Of a DNA stretch of 64,000 nucleotides, positions 22,482-39,123 are shown piece after piece. Numbering within the stretch: the stretch's first letter is position 1; each line of letters starts with the position of its first letter. Under the pieces are notes generated by a model. It had not been told where the DNA came from. It saw only the letters and a program-made list of their open reading frames with translations, and did no database searches. This stretch comes from Flavobacteriales bacterium (lineage in GTDB: Bacteria; Bacteroidota; Bacteroidia; Palsa-965), in the NCBI GenBank assembly GCA_040377305.1, contig JBEIPA010000014.1, positions 64,001-128,000 on the forward strand, read 5' to 3'. The translations under genes and the position numbers were made by a program.

Positions 22482-23885
22482 TTACCCATCCATTCGCACG
22501 ATACGCGGACTGAACTTTCCTACGATGTCGACTAAATCAACTTGCGCCTCCATCACCTGAAAAATGTCTTTGTACGCATGTGGCGATTCATCCAGACCAC
22601 CACCGATTAACGTCACGTTATTTTCTTTCAGCACAGATTTCATCTCTGCATTCGTTACGTTTTTCATTGCTGCTGTACGCGACATTTTACGTCCCGCTCC
22701 ATGAGAAGCAGAGTTGATGGAAATGCTCGCACCTTTTCCGCGTACAATGAATCCCGGTGCAGTCATCGATCCCGGAATAATTCCGAGAACGCCTTTGCCG
22801 GCAGGTGTTGCACCTTTACGATGCACGATTACATCTTTGCCGTTGAATTTTTCTTTCCATGCAAAGTTGTGGTGGTTTTCTACCATCGCGATGGGTTCAA
22901 CACCAAGCGCAGCTGCAATCTTCTCGTGAATTTTGTGATGACACGCCGAAGCATAATCACCAGCGAGATTCATTGCAAGCCAATACTCTTGTCCTTCCTG
23001 AGTTGAAAGATCAAGCCACGCAAGATGTTTTGCTTCCTGCGGCAAACGACATTTCTCCATTGCCACTTTCGTGTAATGGTTCGCAATCGTTGCGCCAAGT
23101 CCGCGCGAACCGGAATGCGACAACAACGCGAGGTATCGACCTAATGGAAGATTGAACTCGTTGTTCTCATCGCTGATATCAACAACTCCGAATTCCACAA
23201 AGTGATTTCCCGAACCGGATGTTCCCATTTGCTTCACTGCTTTCAGCTGCAGACCTTTCAGCAATGGAATTTCATCGAACAACTTTCGGTCAGTCACTTC
23301 AAACTCTTTGTTCTCCTTGAACTCTTGTCCTGAACCAAAGAGTGTATTATCCGTAAGCACTTTGTAAAGTCCGCGCGAGTCGGTGTCGATGATCTCGTGC
23401 GGAGTCGGAAAAATACTCAGGCACATTCGGCAACCGATGTCGACGCCAACTCCATAAGGAATAATTGCGTTTTCCGTAGCGAGTACACCACCGATCGGCA
23501 ATCCATAACCCTGATGCGCATCCGGCATCAAAGCACCGGCAACTGCAACCGGCAAACGAATTGCCACATCCATTTGTTTACGCGCACCATCTTCGATCTG
23601 ATCTCCACCGTAAATTGCGTAAGATCCTTGTTCGATGCGCAATGCAATTTCGGGACCTTCCGCTTCTTTCGGCTTTTCCGTCAACGCATCCGCAATCGCA
23701 GCGAGGTTCGTGTCGTCGAGATAATCCGCAGGTGCAGCAAGAATATTTTTCAGCATCTCCATCACATCTTCACGTGATGATTTGCGGTAATACTTTTCAA
23801 TGATGTTGAGGGCAATTCCCACAACGCGTCCTTGTTTGTATCCAAGTTCGCGAAGGTGATCTCCGGTGATGTTTAATTTGTTCAT
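22482..23885 (-). CDS. rtcB: RtcB RNA ligase (copy 1)
   Basis: MPDAH.GYGLPIGG, VGVDIGC, GNHFVE, HSGSRG, HNFA, HRKGAT, SHGAGR. Confidence 0.95.
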   Translation of the reverse strand: MNKLNITGDHLRELGYKQGRVVGIALNIIEKYYRKSSREDVMEMLKNILAAPADYLDDTNLAAIADALTEKPKEAEGPEIALRIEQGSYAIYGGDQIEDGARKQMDVAIRLPVAVAGALMPDAHQGYGLPIGGVLATENAIIPYGVGVDIGCRMCLSIFPTPHEIIDTDSRGLYKVLTDNTLFGSGQEFKENKEFEVTDRKLFDEIPLLKGLQLKAVKQMGTSGSGNHFVEFGVVDISDENNEFNLPLGRYLALLSHSGSRGLGATIANHYTKVAMEKCRLPQEAKHLAWLDLSTQEGQEYWLAMNLAGDYASACHHKIHEKIAAALGVEPIAMVENHHNFAWKEKFNGKDVIVHRKGATPAGKGVLGIIPGSMTAPGFIVRGKGASISINSASHGAGRKMSRTAAMKNVTNAEMKSVLKENNVTLIGGGLDESPHAYKDIFQVMEAQVDLVDIVGKFSPRIVRMDG

Positions 23886-24514: not shown

Positions 24515-24552
24515 GATTATTCTATACTAATCAATTTACAAAATTTGTTTTG

Positions 24553-24623
24553 ACGACCGACAGGGATTCGAACCCCGATCCTCAGATTCGTATTCTGAGA
24601 TTCTTCCGTTGAACTATCGATCG
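24553..24623 (-). tRNA. tRNA-Arg(ACG), atypical
   Basis: CGATCGA/TCGGTCG acceptor, TCAGA-ATACGAA-TCTGA anticodon arm, GGTTCGAATCC. Confidence 0.85.
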
Positions 24624-24656
24624 AAATACAGTGTCGGGATACGATCCCGACACCTC

Positions 24657-24788
24657 ACAGGCAAAAAGCGAAAAGAGACTGTTTGCATTGCTCTACCACT
24701 GAGCTACACACAACTTTCGCTATGTGGCCGGATTCGAACCGGCGTCCCATGGATTGGAAGTCGAAGTAACTCTTTTCTACGGCACTGT
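24657..24788 (-). ncRNA. Y RNA (YrlA-like) with circularly permuted tRNA domain (Y1)
   Basis: 5' GTGCCGTA-GAAAAGAG-TTACTTC stem closed by CTCTTTTC; T arm precedes a GAAA-capped acceptor stem and a D arm (TAGCTCAGTGGTAGAGC); downstream of the TROVE gene. Confidence 0.85.
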
Positions 24789-24794
24789 TCATTG

Positions 24795-24868
24795 GGTGTT
24801 AGATCGGTTTCGATCCGATTACCTCTTGCTTCACAAGCAAGCGCTCTCCCGAGTGAGCTACAAACACC
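24795..24868 (-). tRNA. tRNA-His(GTG)
   Basis: G-1:C73, CTTGC-TTGTGAA-GCAAG arm, unusual T loop ATCGAAA. Confidence 0.85.
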
Positions 24869-24873
24869 GTGTT

Positions 24874-24957
24874 CAGTAGGCAGTTTGGCAGTAGTGCAGT
24901 TGGCAGTCAAAATATAATTCTCTGACTGCCTACTGCCCAACTGCTTACTGCCTACTG
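24874..24957. repeat. CAGTAGG/CAGTTGG heptamer hairpin spacer
   Basis: Tandem cagtNgg units followed by their reverse complement. Confidence 0.8.
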
Positions 24958-24963
24958 TTCTTG

Positions 24964-25037
24964 TACTCTGTGTGGGATTCGAACCCACGTGATCTGGTCG
25001 AAAACCAGATATACTAGACCAACTATATGAACAGAGC
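24964..25037 (-). tRNA. tRNA-Glu(TTC)
   Basis: GCTCTGT/ACAGAGT acceptor, TCTGG-TTTTCGA-CCAGA arm, GTGGG-TTCGAAT-CCCAC. Confidence 0.88.
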
Positions 25038-25122
25038 CTGATTGATTTGCGGATGACGCGCCGGGTTCTCTCCTTTGGAGAGTTAGAGAGGCGCGGCGCG
25101 TAATCCGCAAATCAATCTTCAG

Positions 25123-25196
25123 TCGCGACAGCAGGATTCGAACCTACATCTTCTCCAGTCCAAGTGGAGAGGCTTAGCCAATTAGCCGACCTCGCG
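25123..25196 (-). tRNA. tRNA-Pro(TGG)
   Basis: C1-G72, A73, CTCCA-CTTGGAC-TGGAG arm; one acceptor mismatch. Confidence 0.82.
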
Positions 25197-26766: not shown

Positions 26767-28281
26767 CTACAACTCGAGTTGTTTTATCATCGCGATTGCA
26801 TCTGTACCGTTTTCTGCAGCATACAATACGTCGAACACTTTATCTGACCAGCCCGCGATGAGTGTTACATCGTCGCGCTGCACACTGATTGGTGTGTTAC
26901 CGTAACCTGCGAGGTCGAACAAGTACAGTTTCGCCATTGGCGCAATCTGTTTGTATTCTTTCCACGCCGTCTGCAACGAATCACCGTCAGCTTTGGTATT
27001 CCACATCTGGCAGTCAGTGAACATCATCACTTTGTCCATCACAACATTGCGCTGAACAAGATCTTTGATCACCAGGTAACCATTTGTGGCGTAACCAACT
27101 TCACCTTCCCGCTTGTAGTACTCATCAACATTCGCAAGTACTCCACGGTTAGGCATGTTGATTACCTTCCAGCGATCTCCGAACATTCCGGAAACCACTC
27201 GTTCACACTTGCTCTGCATCAGCATACCCAGTACCAGACCGATATCGAACAAATACACTTTGCTCTTCGCCGAGATTGGTTTCTGCATTGAACCCGAAAC
27301 GTCACACGCAATCAACACACGTGTTTTGTAATCGAATCCGCTGATGTTTTTCGCTGAAGCTACAATTGCATCTTCCAGCGCGTTAAGTATCATCGACACG
27401 TAATCAGCTTTCAGCACTTTCACTTCACGGTATGCAGACAGGAAACGGAATGGCAACTGCTTCGATTTCGCAACCTGGTTTGCATCAGAAAGCGTATCAC
27501 ACACTTTTTTGATTGCATCCCATGATACACCCGCTTCAATCATGTTACGGATGTTACGCAACATCGCCATGTATCCCAGCTTACCGCTGAAGATCAGTTC
27601 TTCCCATTTCGCACGAACCGCAAGCTCTTTTGCTTTTGCATCAGCGAATTTTTGCTGACCCAAAGCAGAAAGTTCAGTTTCCCAGGTATAAGCAACAGAC
27701 AGCTCTTTCGCAGCGATCTTGTTGAAGACTGCTTGCTGTTCATCACTTTTCGCTTTCGGGTGAACAAGGAACAATGCATCACGCAACGTTACTGCCGCTT
27801 CACGGTTGTATTTCGAGAACTGGTATTCATCAAAACGATTGAACGCCTTTGCGAGTCCTTTCTGTACCTGTTTCGAAAGCTTGTTCAGTTTCTTAGTTCC
27901 CGAACGGTTGTTCGCCAGTTGGTAGTAAGCCAGAAGCTCAGTGATCTCATCAGCACGCTGAACGACACCGTTCACCGCTTTGGATACAACTATATTTCCG
28001 GAGTTACGTTTTGCAAGTTCGACTGCAAGCACCTGTGGAATAGAACGCATGTACATTTTGTTACGTGCATACACCGCAAGCTTCGCCACGAATTCAGCAT
28101 CTGTCTTCTCCATGAGATCCACGATACGTTGAAGACGCTCGTTTCCTTTCTCATAGAACGAATCGCTCAGTCCTGCGGTTACTACCGCTGAATACAGTTC
28201 GAGCTCAGGAGTCATTGCGAATGCTTTTGCGCCTTCGTAATTAGTGACTGCTGTTTTACGTTTGAAGATGTTGAATTTCAT
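26767..28281 (-). CDS. rsr: Ro60/Rsr TROVE-domain RNA-binding protein with vWA domain
   Basis: NYEGAKAF, FDEYQFSKY, YTWETELS, LGYMAMLRN, QLPFRF, DVSGSM MIDAS, FTDCQ. Confidence 0.93.
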   Translation of the reverse strand: MKFNIFKRKTAVTNYEGAKAFAMTPELELYSAVVTAGLSDSFYEKGNERLQRIVDLMEKTDAEFVAKLAVYARNKMYMRSIPQVLAVELAKRNSGNIVVSKAVNGVVQRADEITELLAYYQLANNRSGTKKLNKLSKQVQKGLAKAFNRFDEYQFSKYNREAAVTLRDALFLVHPKAKSDEQQAVFNKIAAKELSVAYTWETELSALGQQKFADAKAKELAVRAKWEELIFSGKLGYMAMLRNIRNMIEAGVSWDAIKKVCDTLSDANQVAKSKQLPFRFLSAYREVKVLKADYVSMILNALEDAIVASAKNISGFDYKTRVLIACDVSGSMQKPISAKSKVYLFDIGLVLGMLMQSKCERVVSGMFGDRWKVINMPNRGVLANVDEYYKREGEVGYATNGYLVIKDLVQRNVVMDKVMMFTDCQMWNTKADGDSLQTAWKEYKQIAPMAKLYLFDLAGYGNTPISVQRDDVTLIAGWSDKVFDVLYAAENGTDAIAMIKQLEL

Positions 28282-28327: not shown

Positions 28328-28348
28328 CTACGCAATGGTCTTGCGCAG
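28328..28348. promoter_or_regulatory. Candidate WYL-regulator operator (site 1)
   Basis: CTACGCAA-N5-TTGCGCAG just upstream of the TROVE gene. Confidence 0.6.
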
Positions 28349-28434
28349 TTCGATTTATTTTAACTTTTTGTTTTAATCGCCTGATTTTCAGTTGGCATTA
28401 ATTCGTTTTTTCAATCGCAACATTTATTGCGGCG

Positions 28435-28507
28435 TTGGAAAGGAAGGGCTCGAACCTTCGACCTTGTGCGTATAAGGCACGTGCTCTTACCACTGAGCTA
28501 CTCTCCA
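28435..28507 (-). tRNA. tRNA-Ile(TAT)
   Basis: TGGAGAG/CTTTCCA acceptor, GTGC-CTTATAC-GCAC arm, canonical D and T arms. Confidence 0.82.
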
Positions 28508-28514
28508 AGTCTTG

Positions 28515-28586
28515 CGGCGCGGATTGGACTTGAACCAATATAATCTCCCTTAACAGGGGAGAGCTCTACCATTGAGCTACCAGGCC
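28515..28586 (-). tRNA. tRNA-Asn(GTT)
   Basis: CTCCC-CTGTTAA-GGGAG arm, G73; one acceptor mismatch. Confidence 0.85.
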
Positions 28587-28591
28587 ATTTG

Positions 28592-28664
28592 CGGTAACGA
28601 TGGGATTCGAACCCACAACTTTCCGATAGACAATCGGACGCTCTAGCCGTTGAACTACGCTACC
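28592..28664 (-). tRNA. tRNA-Asp(GTC)
   Basis: GGTAGCG/CGTTACC, TCCGA-TTGTCTA-TCGGA arm, G73. Confidence 0.87.
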
Positions 28665-28669
28665 ATTTG

Positions 28670-28742
28670 TGGACAAGGAAGGAATTGAACCTTCATCTTC
28701 TGATCTTCAGTCAGCCGCATTCACCGCGTTTGCTACCTGTCC
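28670..28742 (-). tRNA. tRNA-Phe(GAA)
   Basis: GGACAGG/CTTGTCC, CTGA-CTGAAGA-TCAG arm. Confidence 0.85.
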
Positions 28743-28748
28743 GTTTTG

Positions 28749-28822
28749 TTGACCCACCAGGGCTCGAACCTGGAACCCCCACTTTAAAAGAGCGGTGCAT
28801 CTAACCATTGAGCTATGGATCA
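28749..28822 (-). tRNA. tRNA-Lys(TTT)
   Basis: TGATCCA/TGGGTCA, CCGCT-CTTTTAA-AGTGG arm. Confidence 0.85.
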
Positions 28823-28835
28823 ATATTTCTTCGCT

Positions 28836-28891
28836 TGTCCTCCTTCGGCAAAGCCTGTGCTGAGCGAAGTCGAAGTGCTCAGTCTGACAAG
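28836..28891. repeat. REP-like element (CTGAGCGAAGTCGAAG family)
   Basis: ctgagcgaagtcgaag core; inverted relative cttcgactacgctcag at about 28988-29003. Confidence 0.6.
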
Positions 28892-28894
28892 TCG

Positions 28895-28965
28895 TTGTCG
28901 GAAATGGATTTGAACCACTATAGCCAGATTCAAACTCTGGTGTCCTACCATTAGACGATCCGACA
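28895..28965 (-). tRNA. tRNA-Gln(TTG)
   Basis: TGTCGGA/TCCGACA, CCAGA-GTTTGAA-TCTGG arm. Confidence 0.87.
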
Positions 28966-29010
28966 TTCAGTGTGTTTTCTTGTCATTCTTCGACTACGCT
29001 CAGTATGACA

Positions 29011-29041
29011 ATAAAAAAACCCGGTCGTGTGCGGACCGGGT
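29011..29041 (-). terminator. Attenuator terminator 2
   Basis: ACCCGGTC-loop-GACCGGGT followed by a T tract on - strand. Confidence 0.85.
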
Positions 29042-29064
29042 CTAACAAATCAGTTCAACTGATT

Positions 29065-29154
29065 TCAGTTATGACAACATCGGTCCACGAATTTTCCTTT
29101 CTGAAAATCTCGTTCGCTAAAATTGGGCAAGGCTATATAACTATGTTTCTTCAT
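29065..29154 (-). CDS. Leader peptide 2 (MKKHSYIALPNFSERDFQKGKFVDRCCHN)
   Basis: 29-aa ORF ending just before the terminator; contains GGACCG complementary to the terminator 5' arm. Confidence 0.7.
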   Translation of the reverse strand: MKKHSYIALPNFSERDFQKGKFVDRCCHN

Positions 29155-29252
29155 GGTGTTTCTTTCTCTTCAACTTTTTTATTGTCAGGCCGAGTAGTCA
29201 TTGCAGTCTGCGGAGCAACTTGTGCTTGAAGATCGACGTACCGAGGTCGGGC

Positions 29253-29282
29253 AATAAAAAAGCCCCGAATCTCTCCGGGGCT
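29253..29282 (-). terminator. Attenuator terminator 1
   Basis: AGCCCCGG-loop-TCGGGGCT followed by TTTTTATT. Confidence 0.85.
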
Positions 29283-29307
29283 TTACTTCAGTTATATCCT
29301 AAAGCAA

Positions 29308-29385
29308 TTACACCCCGTGCAACAGACGATCTCCTTCGAGATTTATCTGTTTGCGTGTTTGCGGATATGTAAAATGCTTTTTCAT
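29308..29385 (-). CDS. Leader peptide 1 (MKKHFTYPQTRKQINLEGDRLLHGV)
   Basis: 25-aa ORF after a TATATTTG promoter; ends in CGGGGT complementary to the terminator 5' arm. Confidence 0.7.
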   Translation of the reverse strand: MKKHFTYPQTRKQINLEGDRLLHGV

Positions 29386-29404
29386 TTTTCTTCTTATTCT
29401 GCGA

Positions 29405-29412
29405 CAAATATA
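29405..29412 (-). promoter_or_regulatory. Bacteroidota -7 promoter element TATATTTG
   Basis: Matches the TAnnTTTG consensus, about 20 nt upstream of leader 1. Confidence 0.65.
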
Positions 29413-29489: not shown

Positions 29490-29510
29490 CTGCGCAAATA
29501 CATTGCGCAG
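29490..29510. promoter_or_regulatory. Candidate WYL-regulator operator (site 2)
   Basis: Perfect CTGCGCAA-N5-TTGCGCAG 35 nt upstream of the WYL gene. Confidence 0.65.
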
Positions 29511-29545: not shown

Positions 29546-30574
29546 ATGCCGATAAACAAACTCGCACTCATCCGCTACAAGACAATTGATAACTGTCTGC
29601 AGAACCGTTTCCGCAAATGGACACTTGACGATCTAGTGGATGCATGCTCGCGTACACTGGAAGAGTTCGAAGGAATTACACAAGGAGTAAGCAAGCGTAC
29701 TGTTCAGCTCGATATTCAGACGATGCGCAGTGAAAAGCTAGGATACAATGCTCCTATTGTGGTCAGCGACAAGAAGTATTATTCGTACGAAGACAAGAAT
29801 TACAGCATCACGAATATTCCGTTGACGAGTCAGGATTTAGGAACGCTCACGGAAGTTGTAGATATTCTACGCCAGTTTAAAGGGTTCGGTTACTTCGAAG
29901 AGCTCAGCACAATGGTGAACAAGCTCGAGGACAAAGTGCAGTCTCAGAAGAACAAAGGTCGCTCGTATATACACTTTGAGAAAAATGATTTGCTAAAAGG
30001 TCTCGAGTACATCGAATCATTGCACAAGGCGATCATTCGTCAGAAAACGATTGACGTATTATATCAGTCGTTCAAAGCACGTGAAGCGACAAGCATCATT
30101 TTTCATCCTTATCTGCTCAAGGAATACCGCAACCGCTGGTTTGTGATCGGCTCAACGCAAAAGAAAACAATTCTTACTCTGGCACTGGATAGAATTTTTT
30201 CTGTGAAAGAAGTCGGTGGAGAGAAATACATCAAGAATACCTTCTTTGATGTTGACTCGTACTTTGATGATACGATTGGCGTTACGAAGAATCTCGGGAT
30301 TCGACCACAATTGGTCGTGATGAAAATTGATCGTACGAATGCGCCATACGTAATCACAAAACCGATTCACCACACGCAGAAGATTCTGAAGACAGAACCC
30401 GACGGAATGATTTTCAGTATTAACGTGACGTGGAATTTTGAGTTGGAAAGAGAAATCCTTGGGTTTGGTGAACAGATAAAGGTGTTATCGCCAAAGAGAT
30501 TGCAGAATAAGATTAGCTGGAGGGTGAAGAGGATGGTGGAGAGGTATGAGGAACTTCAACCAAATGAACGATGA
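29546..30574 (+). CDS. wHTH-WYL-WCX transcriptional regulator
   Basis: N-terminal HTH (VSKRTVQLDIQTMR), HPYLLKEYRNRWFV and LALDRI WYL motifs, VLSPKRL tail. Confidence 0.92.
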   Translation: MPINKLALIRYKTIDNCLQNRFRKWTLDDLVDACSRTLEEFEGITQGVSKRTVQLDIQTMRSEKLGYNAPIVVSDKKYYSYEDKNYSITNIPLTSQDLGTLTEVVDILRQFKGFGYFEELSTMVNKLEDKVQSQKNKGRSYIHFEKNDLLKGLEYIESLHKAIIRQKTIDVLYQSFKAREATSIIFHPYLLKEYRNRWFVIGSTQKKTILTLALDRIFSVKEVGGEKYIKNTFFDVDSYFDDTIGVTKNLGIRPQLVVMKIDRTNAPYVITKPIHHTQKILKTEPDGMIFSINVTWNFELEREILGFGEQIKVLSPKRLQNKISWRVKRMVERYEELQPNER

Positions 30575-33506: not shown

Positions 33507-34205
33507 ATGGCTATTTCAAGAAAATACGGCCGTACATACCATTATCCATTTTCTCCCGGAACTACAAGCGATGATCGCATCAGCCACGACTACTGGAATG
33601 ATGTGACAAAAATTGCTTCGCTGATTCACACGGAAAAACTGGACGGTGAAAACAATTGCCTTAATCGTTATGGTGTTTTTGCGCGTTCGCATGCGGCCCC
33701 ATCGCAATCGCCGTGGACGGCATGGTTGCGTGAACGTTGGGAGTTACTGAAACATGATCTCGGTGATCTGGAAATATTCGGCGAGAATCTTTACGCAATA
33801 CATTCAATCGAATACGCGAAGCTGGAAAATCATTATTATGTTTTCGGTGTGCGGCGCGAAGATCATTGGTTGTCGTGGGAGGAAACTAAGTTCTATGCGA
33901 GTATGCTGGACTTTCCGACTGTACCTGAGATTCAACTTATTTCGACACCCATCGACCGGAAAGTATTCGAAGCCGATGTGCTTTCGATTGTTTCGCAGGA
34001 AAGTAAAATGGGAAGCCTCGATGCTTTCACCGGCAAAGTCTGCACGATGGAAGGAATTGTAACCCGCAACACCGGCGAATATGCCGTAACTGATTTCGCG
34101 CATCATGTTTTCAAATACGTGCGAAAAAGTCACGTGAAAACAGATGCACACTGGACACGTAACTGGAGAAGATCAAAACTGATCTGGGAACGAGCCGGCG
34201 ACTAA
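33507..34205 (+). CDS. ATP-dependent RNA ligase family protein
   Basis: KYGRTYHYPFSPG..DD, motif I TEKLDGEN, FGEN, EGIVTR, FKYV. Confidence 0.88.
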   Translation: MAISRKYGRTYHYPFSPGTTSDDRISHDYWNDVTKIASLIHTEKLDGENNCLNRYGVFARSHAAPSQSPWTAWLRERWELLKHDLGDLEIFGENLYAIHSIEYAKLENHYYVFGVRREDHWLSWEETKFYASMLDFPTVPEIQLISTPIDRKVFEADVLSIVSQESKMGSLDAFTGKVCTMEGIVTRNTGEYAVTDFAHHVFKYVRKSHVKTDAHWTRNWRRSKLIWERAGD

Positions 34206-34223
34206 CTAACAATTTCAAAATGA

Positions 34224-35336
34224 ATGTTTATGTGGACAATTTCGGATATAAAGCAATGGCAAACGCTCTACGACAAGTTCGACTGGGTGCGCGATATGCG
34301 TGGCGTTCCCCAGGATCGCGTGCATCATGCAGAAGGTGATGTGGAAGTACATACGCGCATGGTACTTGATGCGTTGGAAAATCTTCCAGACTATCAGCAA
34401 CTGAATGAACAGGACAGAGAAATTCTTTGGGCTTCTGCTTTGCTGCACGATGTAGAAAAACGATCAACTACTATTCACAATGAAGACGGACGTATATCTT
34501 CTCCCAATCACGCAAAAAAGGGTGCAGCTACAACGCGCAGTTTGTTGTACCGCAACATTCCCGCACCGTTTCATATTCGCGAAGCTGTGGTGAAGCTCGT
34601 GCGTTATCACGGCTTACCGCTGTGGGTATTCCATAAACCTGATCCGGCAAAAGCGCTAATTGCGGCAAGTCTTTCCGTGAATACGCATCACCTTAGTCTG
34701 CTCGCTGAAGCAGATGTGCTTGGAAGAGAATGCGCGGATCGTAATGAACTTCTTTATCGTGTGGAAATGTTTCGGGAACTATGCAAAGAACAGCTCGCGT
34801 ATGGAAAAGCAAAATCCTTTCCATCTGAACTCAGCAAGATGAACTATTTCCGGAAAGAAGACGGTTCGCCGGACTATGAACCATTCGACGTTACGCAATG
34901 TGAAGTAGTTTTACTTTCAGGTTTGCCGGGATCAGGAAAAGACAATTATCTGCGGAAATATCTGAAAGAGTGGCCGGTGGTAAGCATCGATGACATTCGA
35001 AAGAAAAATAAAATCTCCCCGACGGATAAAAAAGGAAATGGCCAGGCGATACAGATGGCGAAGGAACAGGCGCGAGTATACCTGCGAAGCAAAACTTCAT
35101 TCGTGTGGAATGCAACGAACATCACGCGATCTATGCGAGGGCAGTTGATTGATCTGTTTCTCACTTACAAAGCGAAAGTGAAGATCGTGTACGTAGAGGT
35201 TCCTTACGCCACATTGCGTAGACAAAACCGCGAACGTGAACACGTGGTTCCGGCAGCTGCATTGGAGAAATTAATCGATAAGCTGGAGGTTCCAACGCCG
35301 GACGAAGCGCATGAGATCATATATGAAATAAAATAG
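34224..35336 (+). CDS. HD-domain phosphohydrolase + P-loop (polynucleotide kinase-like) protein
   Basis: HHAEGDV..HT, ALLHDVEK, GLPGSGK Walker A, WNATN. Confidence 0.87.
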   Translation: MFMWTISDIKQWQTLYDKFDWVRDMRGVPQDRVHHAEGDVEVHTRMVLDALENLPDYQQLNEQDREILWASALLHDVEKRSTTIHNEDGRISSPNHAKKGAATTRSLLYRNIPAPFHIREAVVKLVRYHGLPLWVFHKPDPAKALIAASLSVNTHHLSLLAEADVLGRECADRNELLYRVEMFRELCKEQLAYGKAKSFPSELSKMNYFRKEDGSPDYEPFDVTQCEVVLLSGLPGSGKDNYLRKYLKEWPVVSIDDIRKKNKISPTDKKGNGQAIQMAKEQARVYLRSKTSFVWNATNITRSMRGQLIDLFLTYKAKVKIVYVEVPYATLRRQNREREHVVPAAALEKLIDKLEVPTPDEAHEIIYEIK

Positions 35337-35431
35337 TGCCCGGACAATCAATTGCAGATGTTCCTTTTTTTAAATATCCATTAAACATGACACTTTTTAT
35401 TGCATCTTAGCTGCTCAACAAATGCATTCTT

Positions 35432-35983
35432 ATGTCCGCTATTTATGATTCCTACGCCATCTTCGGCGAATTTACCGGTAAAGATCTCGGCACCGAAGAA
35501 ATGAAAATGGGATTAGCAAACCGCGTCTTCAATCGTACAGAGGCGCTTCACGGTGACGCAATTTCACTCGTCAAAAAATCCAATCATGAACGCATCCGTC
35601 TGAAACGGGGAGTGTACCGCATTACGGCAACTTCTTTTTTAACCATGCTCACTGCGGGAGTTCCGCCGGTACCTCCGGTGAAGACAGAATTTCTCTCCGA
35701 TGTGTACCCCGGCTACTGTATGTTGTATGATGCAAACGATCCTCCTACCGAAGCGGACATGTCTAAGATGCTTTATCCCGGAACCATGGGAACGGCTTAT
35801 GATGGCGTTCCAAGTCTTCTCGATTGTGTGCTCAAAGTAAAAGACAAACACATGGACATTTCACTCGGCCACCAGTGCAGCTACGATGGACCTAAGGGAG
35901 ATCTCCGGCCAAAAGTTTATCTGCGTATCGGCGGTTCAGACTTCCACGTATGCGCACGCATTTCCATTTTTAAGATCGCTTAA
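35432..35983 (+). CDS. Hypothetical protein
   Basis: 183-aa ORF, no motif recognised. Confidence 0.6.
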   Translation: MSAIYDSYAIFGEFTGKDLGTEEMKMGLANRVFNRTEALHGDAISLVKKSNHERIRLKRGVYRITATSFLTMLTAGVPPVPPVKTEFLSDVYPGYCMLYDANDPPTEADMSKMLYPGTMGTAYDGVPSLLDCVLKVKDKHMDISLGHQCSYDGPKGDLRPKVYLRIGGSDFHVCARISIFKIA

Positions 35984-36005
35984 AACAACCACAATTCTGA
36001 GCTGT

Positions 36006-36779
36006 ATGAAAATATTTCTTGCACCTGTTGCATTGGGTCTGCTGCTGCTCACATGCAGTTCACCGAAAGAAAGTAATCACGCCGTTGATTCCGCTGCTGT
36101 TGACACAACGAAAAACGACACCCCGTTAGTCAGCGGCAATGGAGCTGCATTTGTCTACGGCATCGACATCTCTTCCTACCAGGGCGACGAGATCGATTTT
36201 CTTAACAGCAAACAGGATACACTTTCGTTTGTAATCTGCAGAGCAACACTCGGTATTACGGTTACCGACACCGACTTTAAGAACAACTGGAGCCTCATTC
36301 CACAAAAGGGATTTATCCGCGGGGCTTATCACTTTTATGAATGTAACGACGATCCAACCGAACAGGCGCAACATTATCTCGACATTGTTGGTACTCTTGC
36401 TGCCGGAGATCTTCCTCCTATTCTTGATTTTGAACAGGCGGGCCTCGCCGACATTATAGACAAGCAGAAAATTCAGAGTGACCTACTGACTTTTCTCAGC
36501 ACAGTGGAAAGCGCAACCGGGAGAACACCTTTGATTTATGTAAGTCCGGACTTTGCGAATGTGTATCTGACTGATCCGGCATTTGCGAAGTATCCCTTGT
36601 ACGTTGCCGACTACAACGGACAACAGAAGCCATCCGTTCCGACGGTGTGGAAATCGGAGCAATGGACGCTCTGGCAAAAAACGGACACCGTTCACGTGAA
36701 CGGAAATCAAAATGACTACGACATGTTCAATGGTAGCGCAGAAGCCTTACAGGCATTCATTAACGGAACCGGCAAGTAA
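36006..36779 (+). CDS. GH25 lysozyme/muramidase lipoprotein
   Basis: GIDISSYQG, RGAYHFY, PPILDFE, WTLWQ. Confidence 0.9.
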   Translation: MKIFLAPVALGLLLLTCSSPKESNHAVDSAAVDTTKNDTPLVSGNGAAFVYGIDISSYQGDEIDFLNSKQDTLSFVICRATLGITVTDTDFKNNWSLIPQKGFIRGAYHFYECNDDPTEQAQHYLDIVGTLAAGDLPPILDFEQAGLADIIDKQKIQSDLLTFLSTVESATGRTPLIYVSPDFANVYLTDPAFAKYPLYVADYNGQQKPSVPTVWKSEQWTLWQKTDTVHVNGNQNDYDMFNGSAEALQAFINGTGK

Positions 36780-36787
36780 AATTATTG

Positions 36788-37402
36788 TCAGAGCGGCTCG
36801 CGTATTATTTTACCCGCATTTCCCCTCTGCAACGAATGGTGCTCCAGCCATTGCGACCTTTGTTGCGCGTTCAATTCATCGACATGCATACCGAGCAGTT
36901 TATTCTTCAAACGTTCAGTAGCTGCTTTTTTATTCAACATCTGCGAACGTTCCTCTGAAGCCGTAACACTGATTCCGCTTGGAACATGCGTAGCACGAAC
37001 TGCTGATTCCGTTTTGTTCACATGCTGTCCACCGGGACCTGATGCGCGCATGGTTTGATACGTAACGTCTTTCTCTTTCCATTCAGGAAAAACGGATACA
37101 TCATAAACGTGGATGCCCGCAAACCAATTTTTTCGTTTGTGGTTTTTCCGGAACGGACTCTGCGCAATCCACTGCACGGTTCCTTCCCACTCTATATAGA
37201 ACGAAGACACGTTTTCTCCTCTGATCCGGATCAGTGCCGACAACAACGTATCATCCGGCTTCCCGGGAACAAGCTCAATGATTTCCACACCGAGCTGTTC
37301 CCGTTCTGCCGCTTTCGTAATCTTCTTAAGAAGAAGCGCCACAACTCTTTCGCATTCTGCCGGACCTTTGCCGGAAGTTATCTGCATGATTTTTTCTTTC
37401 AT
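36788..37402 (-). CDS. prfH: Peptide chain release factor H
   Basis: TSGKGPAEC, GTVQW...SPFR..HKRKNWF, GGQ motif; adjacent to rtcB. Confidence 0.93.
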   Translation of the reverse strand: MKEKIMQITSGKGPAECERVVALLLKKITKAAEREQLGVEIIELVPGKPDDTLLSALIRIRGENVSSFYIEWEGTVQWIAQSPFRKNHKRKNWFAGIHVYDVSVFPEWKEKDVTYQTMRASGPGGQHVNKTESAVRATHVPSGISVTASEERSQMLNKKAATERLKNKLLGMHVDELNAQQRSQWLEHHSLQRGNAGKIIREPL

Positions 37403-37407
37403 CGTTT

Positions 37408-38814
37408 CTATTCTTTATTCATGCGTACAATCTTCGGCGTAAACTTTCCGTGAACCTCCACGAGATCCTGCTGTGCCTTCATCACGTCATCGATGTCTTT
37501 GTATGCAAGAGGCGATTCTTCAGAACTTCCTCCGACCATCGTTACATCTGCAGCATTCAGCATTTGTCGTAATCCGGAATTCGTAATAGATTCCTTCGCT
37601 TTTTTACGCGACATTTTTCTGCCCGCTCCATGCGAAGCAGAGTTTAGTGATTCCGGAACTCCTTTGCCACACACGAGATATCCACCGTGAATCATGTTAC
37701 CAGGAATAATTCCAAGCTCGCCTTTGTGCGCCGGCGTAGCACCTTTACGATGAACAATCATCTCTGCTCCATCTTCCATCGTCTCTTTCCATGCAAAGTT
37801 GTGATGATTCTCTACTTTCGCAACTGGTTTAATTCCGAGTGCACGAGAGAGATTGATGTGAATCCTGTCGTGACACGCTTTCGCGTAATCGCCTGCAAGA
37901 TTCATACTCAGCCAATATTCCTGTCCTTCCGCGCTGGTGAGATCAAGCCACGCCATGTGTTGTGCATTGCGCGGAAGCTTGCACACGTCCATCGCAACAT
38001 CCGTGTAGTGCTTTGCGATTGTTGCACCCAATCCGCGTGAACCGGAATGCGACAAGAGTGCAACATAATTTCCTGCCGCCATGCCCAGTGTATTTTCCTC
38101 ATTGAGTTCAATCACACCAAACTCTACGAAGTGATTTCCTCCACCCGATGATCCCAGCTGTCTGACTGCTTTACCATGCAATTTTTTCAGCAGTTGCGTT
38201 TCATTGAACGACGGATCATCAAGCACATCATGATCCTGCGCGAATTCCAGACATCCTTCCATTCCGAAGTGCGTGTAATCTTTCAGCGCCATTTTCAATT
38301 CGTGCCGGTTATGTTCAAGATACTTTTCCGGCAAATCAAAAATGGAAAGCGCCATGCGACAACCAATGTCAACACCAACTCCAAATGGAATTACTGCATT
38401 CTCCGCAGCAAGCACACCTCCAATCGGCAAACCGAATCCGCTGTGCGCATCAGGCATCAGCGCTCCTCGTCTGCTTACCGGTAAGCTCAACGCAATTTCC
38501 ATTTGCTGAATTGCTGAGTACTCGATGTGTTGACGTCCGTAGATTTTCACCGGAGCCAACTCGCTGAGCAATTCATGCGTGCGATACTTTTTGTCGGGTA
38601 ATCTTTCCATGAACGTAGACGCCAGTTTCGACAACACTCCATCGCCCAGAAATTCTTCCGGATTTGCTTTCACCTCACAGAACAATTTCAGCACCTCTTC
38701 CTTTGCAGTGTGCTTGAAATGTTGCGACGCGATGATCACTGCCAGACTTTTCGATGTATTGTGATGAAAGCCCATGCGATCGAGATCTTTACTTTTAACT
38801 TTATTCTTACTCAT
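37408..38814 (-). CDS. rtcB: RtcB RNA ligase (copy 2, PrfH-associated)
   Basis: All RtcB motifs present; start MSKNK at 38814 by comparison with copy 1. Confidence 0.93.
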   Translation of the reverse strand: MSKNKVKSKDLDRMGFHHNTSKSLAVIIASQHFKHTAKEEVLKLFCEVKANPEEFLGDGVLSKLASTFMERLPDKKYRTHELLSELAPVKIYGRQHIEYSAIQQMEIALSLPVSRRGALMPDAHSGFGLPIGGVLAAENAVIPFGVGVDIGCRMALSIFDLPEKYLEHNRHELKMALKDYTHFGMEGCLEFAQDHDVLDDPSFNETQLLKKLHGKAVRQLGSSGGGNHFVEFGVIELNEENTLGMAAGNYVALLSHSGSRGLGATIAKHYTDVAMDVCKLPRNAQHMAWLDLTSAEGQEYWLSMNLAGDYAKACHDRIHINLSRALGIKPVAKVENHHNFAWKETMEDGAEMIVHRKGATPAHKGELGIIPGNMIHGGYLVCGKGVPESLNSASHGAGRKMSRKKAKESITNSGLRQMLNAADVTMVGGSSEESPLAYKDIDDVMKAQQDLVEVHGKFTPKIVRMNKE

Positions 38815-38971
38815 TTGTTTCTTCGTTGTTGAATTTAAGTTCTTTGAATTCTCTTCCCACTGTAAGCCGAATCCGTTGCTTCTCCTCTTGTGTCTTTCGG
38901 ATCTGAGTTCTTCTTCGTTTTGTTCTGAACCTTCCGGACAAGACATAGGAATCCCATGTGGCTGTTGCCAT
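38807..38971 (-). CDS. Small basic protein (54 aa) coupled to rtcB copy 2
   Basis: MATATWDSYVLSGRFRTKRRRTQIRK...; A-rich initiation context; stop overlaps the rtcB start (ATGAGTAA). Confidence 0.5.
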   Translation of the reverse strand: MATATWDSYVLSGRFRTKRRRTQIRKTQEEKQRIRLTVGREFKELKFNNEETNE

Positions 38972-39123
38972 TGTTTTTTGTTGTGTTGAATAAACAGTGA
39001 ATTATTCCGATGAATCAGAAGACCTGCAAATGCAACCACGGGCCACAGAAATTCTGTAGTTAGTCAGCGCCGACTATGAAAACTTTATTCGTAAAAAATG
39101 GAAATAGAATTCAAAGCCGCGCT

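Follow-up and report, generated by a model that had tools for sequence, protein, structure and literature searches.

How does a cell sense the loss of a single tRNA species and deploy spare arrays of tRNA genes? The known switches for spare tRNAs and RNA repair, as described in the accessible parts of the sources, are proteins, TrcR and RtcR (PMC8421152, PMC10272220, PMC7790460). A locus in a 5.2-Mb Bacteroidota genome raises the question in a different form. On the minus strand of an RNA-repair island, between the gene for a WYL regulator and an RNA-repair operon with Ro60 and RtcB, a block of six spare tRNA genes is preceded by two short ORFs, each followed by its own terminator. What is this arrangement for? 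The window referred to below is the whole stretch of DNA that was analysed, 64,000 nt in length.

The order on the minus strand is promoter, leader 1, terminator T1, leader 2, terminator T2 and the six tRNA genes, as a sequence-only reading of this DNA had proposed. Its parts are:

29437-29434, minus strand: predicted −33 promoter element, TTTG, from the sequence
29412-29405, minus strand: predicted −7 promoter element, TATATTTG, from the sequence, with a 21-nt spacer from TTTG
29308..29385, minus strand: leader ORF 1, 25 codons (25 aa), from the sequence
29362..29380, minus strand: attenuator 1 segment 1, predicted from folding and both-side changes to pair with 29317-29301 as an anti-antiterminator helix
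29301..29317, minus strand: attenuator 1 segment 2, the antiterminator, with its core CGGGG at 29317-29313, from folding and pairing
29259..29284, minus strand: intrinsic terminator T1, a stem-loop then a U tract to about 29255, from a terminator scan
29155..29258, minus strand: T1-to-leader-2 spacer, 104 nt, largely a dispersed genomic repeat (19 BLASTN hits including itself)
29065..29154, minus strand: leader ORF 2, 29 codons (29 aa), from the sequence
29081..29086, minus strand: attenuator 2 antiterminator core, GGACCG, from folding and pairing
29017..29043, minus strand: intrinsic terminator T2, a stem-loop then a U tract to about 29012, from the same scan
28434..28965, minus strand: spare array of tRNAs Gln(UUG), Lys(UUU), Phe(GAA), Asp(GUC), Asn(GUU) and Ile(UAU), from a tRNA search

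The two promoter elements are of the Bacteroides −33/−7 type. The −7 box TATATTTG is the only such box from 29560 to the tRNAs, and a TA..TTTG box is found 23-35 nt ahead of leader 1 in 9/9 genus-group loci. In the window, the stretch that leads from the promoter to the tRNAs contains no further −7 box; among homologous regions, 3/33 have one. CA..TTTG boxes head attenuated units too, and a degenerate −7 box was for this reason rejected as a mark of dependence on WYL. Rfam gives no gathering-score match for the leaders in the window or in four homologous loci, and within 29011-29412 it gives weak matches only (E > 0.3), with no T-box riboswitch or other cis-regulator.

Five of the six array anticodons have same-anticodon copies elsewhere in the genome. 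The sixth, Ile(UAU), is unique and an extra in a genome that also has TilS; the array is thus a spare set. This tRNA-Ile(UAU) (28434-28507, minus strand) stands alongside an intact TilS, and a pattern for the tRNA matches 3/401 class genomes, once inside a coding sequence, which leaves two true cases. Small dispersed repeats are found in further spacers of the window, at 28966-29016 and 28823-28893, besides the one between T1 and leader 2, and in the relatives L006, L007 and L254 short insertions break up spare tRNA genes.

The array is flanked by the regulator on one side and by the RNA-repair operon on the other:

29546..30574, plus strand: WYL/WCX transcription regulator, divergent (PF13280, PF25583)
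29491..29509, no strand assigned: operator-like palindrome at the promoter of the WYL gene
28329..28347, no strand assigned: palindromic operator-like site at the Ro60 promoter, a predicted WYL site, with a −7-like box at 28319-28312
26767..28281, minus strand: TROVE/Ro60 protein (PF05731, PF25045)
24552..25196, minus strand: tRNAs Pro(UGG), Glu(UUC), His(GUG) and Arg(ACG) and, at 24776-24659, a YrlA-like element, from tRNA and Rfam searches
22482..23885, minus strand: RtcB RNA ligase (PF01139)

The downstream order is Ro60, an exoribonuclease, the Pro/Glu/His/Arg tRNAs with Y-RNA-like elements, and RtcB. The Ro60 and RtcB genes are confirmed by Pfam, with the NCBIfam Rsr model scoring below its cut-off, and the YrlA-like element scores 39.8 bits (E 4e-6), below the gathering score of 69. 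A motif in five copies (26641, 26151, 25507, 25385 and 24785, minus strand) heads Y-RNA-like, partly tRNA-like elements after Ro60. Further along the window, the island of RNA repair and ribosome rescue is completed by genes for an RNA ligase, an HD/AAA kinase-like protein, PrfH and another RtcB (33507-39039). Ro60 has an operator-bearing promoter of its own, and since the Pro/Glu/His/Arg tRNAs (25196-24552) come after this gene, transcripts from the leader promoter reach them by read-through only. The scan found no terminator after tRNA-Ile, and read-through may therefore reach Ro60 and these four tRNAs, which makes ten anticodon classes downstream of the leaders.

T1 and T2 have stabilities of −17.5 and −15.7 kcal/mol. 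The terminator scan as such returns a count at chance level (16 sites vs 16.0 in shuffles), and the pairing of leader end with terminator arm, measured against shuffled leader ends, is marginal at this locus (p 0.077 and 0.025); evidence from this locus alone goes only modestly beyond chance. Among ordinary gene ends with terminators in the same genome, 1/254 reaches the level of leader 1 (−12.3 kcal/mol) and 2/254 that of leader 2 (−11.4 kcal/mol). Both leaders had been said to end in a word complementary to the 5′ arm of their terminator. This is true of leader 1 (29317-29313); in leader 2 the word lies 5-7 codons before the stop (29086-29081). Across 32 tandem loci, a leader's pairing with its own terminator is stronger than with that of the other unit in 30/32 cases for the first leader and 32/32 for the second, and in L036 (from the unpublished genome G012), L119, L190, L191, L188 and L126 the terminator core and the leader word have changed in a matched way. 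Most of the antiterminator helix does not vary within alignments, and its covariation is not above shuffles (both-side changes 155/500 and 336/500).

When nascent-RNA folding is run with a modelled ribosome, the antiterminator has a probability of 0.8-1.0 as long as the P site is at codons 0-18, and of at most 0.16 at later positions up to the final sense codon. The folding of alternative structures, named at the outset as a way of checking the locus, predicts antitermination with a ribosome at codons 1-18 and termination beyond. In the computation antiterminator and terminator are mutually exclusive, and where the ribosome stands decides between them, the exception being a ribosome exactly on the leader 2 stop codon, where the model re-forms antiterminator 2.

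The reading that we favour, at a probability of about 0.7, is that the two units are ribosome-dependent, array-tuned attenuators that would act in series to gate the spare tRNAs. A ribosome reaching the end of a leader would cover the antiterminator word, the terminator would form, and transcription would stop. With the ribosome held up in roughly the first 18 codons, the word would instead stay free to pair with the 5′ arm of the terminator, and read-through would follow. Each leader may be likened to a checklist, with one or two codons per spare anticodon class and no run of a single codon. By this design, both leaders would stall whenever one of the listed tRNAs is lost, be it through cleavage, failed modification or starvation, and equally when elongation is blocked in general. 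The two gates would multiply and so give a low leak. The double translation-dependent gate put forward by the sequence-only reading gains support from the conservation of both units, from the ribosome-modelled folding and from the want of a second −7 box.

A separate question is what keeps the gate shut when no ribosome loads. First leaders are predicted to fold their start region onto the antiterminator segment, and in leader 1 this 1:2 helix would likely serve that role. Both-side changes in the helix number 7 in a set of 13 sequences (0/500 shuffles) and 13 in a set of 19 (1/500 shuffles), in tests that ignore kinship among the sequences. Second leaders lack the 1:2 signal (pairing probability 0.29 vs 0.39 and 0.30 vs 0.41 shuffled), and in genus-group first leaders the probability is barely above shuffled (0.67 vs 0.61). 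At equilibrium without a ribosome, the antiterminator beats the 1:2 helix (−37.2 vs −27.3 kcal/mol), so that the closed state without a ribosome would rest on the order of folding, a kinetic argument.

The arrangement is conserved among close relatives. A WYL match is present in 29/61 related genomes, and both leaders and both terminators are intact in 8/8 loci with WYL identity of at least 77%. One of these eight is the unpublished G012 (L005/L036), on which its paired change in T1 rests; rows from G012 also enter the 1:2 and antiterminator covariation, the permutation and the L036-L039 coverage results. No leader-terminator unit was seen in the eight next WYL loci, one of which is without upstream DNA. 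The four-residue start shared by the two leaders, offered earlier as a likeness between them, is incidental, as leader 2 keeps it in 0/7 same-genus orthologs; BLASTN of either leader unit against the genome does not retrieve the other.

More distant examples exist as well. The pattern of the second unit matches in 21/301 genomes of the family of G429, against a single hit in the reversed control, and 17 of the 21 matches have a first terminator upstream and 18 have tRNAs within 1.5 kb. Tandem pairs are also present in the L177 lineage, L126 and L255. A relaxed second-unit pattern matches 27/401 genomes against 10 control hits in 7 genomes; among 30 of its loci that were read, tRNAs lie downstream in 6, and many are ordinary gene-end terminators. 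A scan of metagenomes with the pattern gave two loci only, one with leaders identical to those of L004/L035. In 29 control loci, which include housekeeping tRNAs from a DNA search around G051, a leader-attenuator precedes 0/31 tRNA clusters. L133 has a spare array without a leader directly ahead. The comparisons draw on 80 automatically detected units, pre-filtered at −6 kcal/mol, from which L194 was left out as a doubtful ORF; nine start codons were picked by hand among alternatives, and five terminators had no leader called.

Within the genome of the window, 2/33 tRNA clusters pass the leader-attenuator test, with a third leader falling below threshold. Among 46 genome-wide candidates that combine a small ORF with a terminator, tRNA genes follow four of the five with the highest switch scores: the two window leaders, the third leader at 33260-33180 and a Cys/Met-rich leader. 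The third leader and its terminator (33260-33127, minus strand) are rich in Leu/Ser/Tyr codons (z 2.3), precede tRNAs Leu, Tyr, Leu, Ser, Ser and Tyr at 33060-32294, and are conserved in L035. The Cys/Met-rich leader (contig C50 of G000, about 23451-23175, minus strand) has the same geometry and lies before a second tRNA-Cys and a sulfite-reductase-like gene, so named from its sequence with no family search behind the name; L233 has a similar terminator ahead of a like gene. A single leader of 37 codons with 18 different amino acids is found in L044 (7412-7654, G051) before a 20-tRNA array behind RtcB. In L256 and L257 (G022 and G024, of the same genus), a separate tandem pair precedes small unannotated ORFs without tRNAs, and one of these ORFs looks common to both genomes.

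The sense of the codon content can be judged from coverage. Within codons 1-18 after the start, a stretch set independently by folding, both leaders match all ten downstream anticodon classes (0/3000 and 1/3000 shuffles), and they cover the six adjacent classes as well (p 0.010 and 0.016). The sequence-only reading had counted correctly that each leader contains all ten amino acids, that these make up 15/25 and 19/29 residues, and that Ile is encoded as ATA in both. Its doubt about the enrichment was justified as far as the share of matching residues goes (p 0.21 and 0.035); the coverage of all ten classes over whole leaders holds (p 0.01 and 0.015). The cognate codons are dispersed singly, the sole run among the ten classes being a Lys-Lys pair, and there is no run of control codons. 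In the family group of G429, first leaders cover 0.91 of their own array vs 0.67 when shuffled (14/14 loci), second leaders 0.94 vs 0.79 (13/14 loci), and first leaders hold 17.7 different amino acids vs 14.6 shuffled.

The link between leader codons and downstream tRNAs, suggested earlier for this locus, was upheld by a permutation test and by one leader outside the sample. In six groups with distinct arrays (36 units), assembled by the analyst, partly homologous and including low-score tRNA calls, the true pairing of leaders with arrays ranks 1/720. It ranks 1/120 without the Cys group, and holds at both the codon and the amino-acid level. Groups C and G were excluded because their arrays cover most amino acids. 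The out-of-sample leader, inside the array of L254, matches the tRNAs downstream of it (0.70 vs 0.45, p 0.003), with no match to those upstream (0.17 vs 0.27).

The strongest rival accepts the attenuators and makes them blind to codons: they would sense general elongation failure, as caused by ribosome-targeting antibiotics or damaged ribosomes, and the match to the array would reflect shared history. Tandem pairs are found before Ro60, RtcB, an RNA ligase gene pair and small ORFs without adjacent tRNAs, which this explanation would expect, and impaired translation is reported to induce the Anabaena trn operon in the text available (PMC8421152). In L255 (668-764, G093), the first leader has all 20 amino acids in 30 post-start codons (0/3000 shuffles) ahead of only Asp and Tyr tRNAs, and neither in L255 nor in L258 are the leaders enriched for the few tRNAs that follow them. 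The codon match also lags behind tRNA loss, as L036-L039 lost several of the six tRNAs yet retain 4-6 of the six codon classes. The behaviour of the Pro/Glu/His/Arg classes can be compared as a single clade contrast: leaders score 10/10 in the window, L033 and L034, where these tRNAs lie behind Ro60, and 6-7 in L036, L037 and L039, where the tRNAs are absent from the loci examined. Against codon-blindness stand the 1/720 rank, the downstream-only match in L254, and the Cys/Met-rich leader of like geometry before tRNA-Cys and the sulfite-reductase-like gene. Codon choice in genus-group leaders, which as kin are not independent, points the same way, with Ile as ATA in 24/28 codons vs 10% genome-wide and Arg never as AGA (0/37). 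We therefore hold the codon-blind explanation to be unlikely. The fairest reading of the array-tuned attenuators is a broad sensor of translation failure with a codon list tuned to the array. These two readings together leave only a small share of probability for all others jointly.

Could a protein control read-through instead, be it the WYL regulator or an RNA-binding antiterminator acting on a conserved RNA, with the ORFs incidental? The adjacent WYL gene invites the thought, and some sequence words appear to be kept irrespective of frame. The antiterminator word is read in different frames across lineages, and an ACATA word, 12-20 nt past the start in most first leaders (29370-29366 in the window), occurs in three reading frames across lineages. 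This word lies inside the 1:2 helix in the genus of the window and mostly outside it in the family of G429; it is a possible pause or cleavage signal. The ORFs themselves argue against their being incidental. Among relatives they stay open with near-constant length, and pN/pS for leader 1 is 0.73 in frame vs 0.86-0.87 in the other frames. Two larger groups give 0.73 and 0.66 in frame vs 0.86-1.14 out of frame, and a third group, of three sequences, shows no clear contrast between frames.

The distribution of operator sites also speaks against protein control. The palindrome T(A/G)CG(C/T)A-N7-T(A/G)CG(C/T)A has six matches in the genome and is a likely WYL operator at the WYL and Ro60 promoters; there is no such site at the leader promoter. 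Among 80 of 318 Ro60 loci that were examined, 60 have an operator-like palindrome upstream and 10 have leader units. Ro60 operons that begin directly with tandem leaders lack the palindrome, and 5/10 leader-bearing Ro60 loci have neither operator nor WYL gene in the locus. Control by a protein is accordingly very improbable.

Marginally less probable again is the notion that the ORFs are small-protein genes with ordinary terminators, the tRNAs being transcribed by leak or from an unseen promoter. It draws on the weak purifying selection on the peptides and on the spacing from stop to stem, which resembles that of ordinary genes. The share of terminators close to a stop is a criterion for the coupling of transcription and translation. 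Terminators within 12 nt of a stop make up 6.7% of the 254 ordinary ones, a low share that is consistent with the coupling which the proposed attenuators would need; no paper applying that criterion to this phylum was found. The small-protein explanation sits poorly with the ordinary genes, among which pairing of gene end with terminator arm comparable to that of the leaders is seen in only 1-2/254, and with the single −7 box. In addition, an NCBIfam search with the leader peptides matched no family, and the peptides are not conserved from family to family.

Finally, the sequence-only reading had named as an alternative that a gene was lost between the terminators, leaving the second unit as a relic; gene loss can indeed stack units, since the third unit of L174 and L175 lies two genes away from the pair and the one of L177 abuts it, but the spacer is only 16-153 nt in all 32 tandem loci, from four lineage groups, and at most 30 nt in 11 of them, and that of the window is a repeat with no tRNA or Rfam family in it (29155-29258), so that no gene was lost here and the probability of a relic is close to nil. 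A 16-codon ORF in the same spacer (29201-29151, minus strand), whose stop overlaps the start of leader 2, is absent from the orthologs examined. L177 has three units in a row.

Classical and multivalent leader-peptide attenuators control trp, his, thr, ilvGMEDA and pheST. The units described here share with them a promoter-proximal short ORF between promoter and regulated genes, an intrinsic terminator, a predicted exclusive antiterminator and, in leader 1, a predicted 1:2 helix. They differ in that tRNA genes would be regulated rather than genes for amino-acid biosynthesis or synthetases, in having no codon run but a codon or two per class for ten classes, and in standing two in series. From its sequence and modelled folding, the locus would behave as a multivalent leader-peptide attenuator minus two classical features, the codon runs and the amino-acid genes. 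A full-text search, with most subscription journals outside its scope, found no paper on leader-peptide attenuation of tRNA genes. In Flavobacterium psychrophilum, leader-peptide attenuation is inferred for amino-acid operons in the accessible text of PMC9723704, and the main text of an attenuator survey (PMC2965389) contains no word beginning with Bacteroid-.

The closest precedent for two units in one leader is the Salmonella mgtCBR operon, in which, as PMC3641672 presents it, the tandem attenuators mgtM and mgtP read different signals, ATP and Pro-tRNA, and act additively on protein genes. In both systems a single leader holds two short ORFs and their attenuator structures, which here are predicted. 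Unlike mgtM and mgtP, both leaders here carry the same ten-class list, each with its own intrinsic terminator. The antibiotic-sensing upstream ORFs of topAI-yjhQ and bmrB (PMC12121999, PMC4191407) likewise employ a short ORF as a sensor of ribosome stalling. There, the accessible texts describe no tRNA control or match between codons and output, whereas here tRNA genes would be regulated.

Among spare-tRNA systems, the Anabaena trn operon and related L-arrays, which are noted in Bacteroidetes, are governed by the ribbon-helix-helix repressor TrcR bound to direct repeats in the promoter, according to the parts available of PMC8421152 and PMC10272220; the string "attenuat" is absent from the main texts of both. 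As in the present locus, a spare array is tied to RtcB and its tRNAs are redundant with housekeeping genes. Silence until translation is impaired has been demonstrated for the trn operon and is what we infer here. The Salmonella rsr-yrlBA-rtcBA operon, as described in PMC7790460, responds to RtcR, which binds a cyclic-phosphate tRNA fragment and links the response to damaged tRNA. It brings Ro60, Y-RNA-like elements and RtcB together in a similar way. What sets the present locus apart is its WYL protein, with the operator-like sites, and a tRNA unit of its own behind the proposed attenuators.

A wider hypothesis, which we hold tentatively and at a little under even odds, is that these elements form a feedback loop on the tRNA pool in Bacteroidota. 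A checklist attenuator pair would activate spare tRNAs upon the loss of any listed species, the module would take the place of the WYL regulator before some Ro60/RtcB operons, and the codon list would be retuned with the array. An anticodon nuclease might be one trigger and failed lysidine formation another, the latter through the ATA codon and the spare Ile(UAU). If this is true, the sensor is the act of decoding itself, and the trigger of each spare tRNA would then be readable from the sequence and testable codon by codon. A portable element of 400 nt would report a shortage of any of ten tRNA classes, and could readily be used to report on anticodon nucleases and defects of modification, for which this phylum has few tools.
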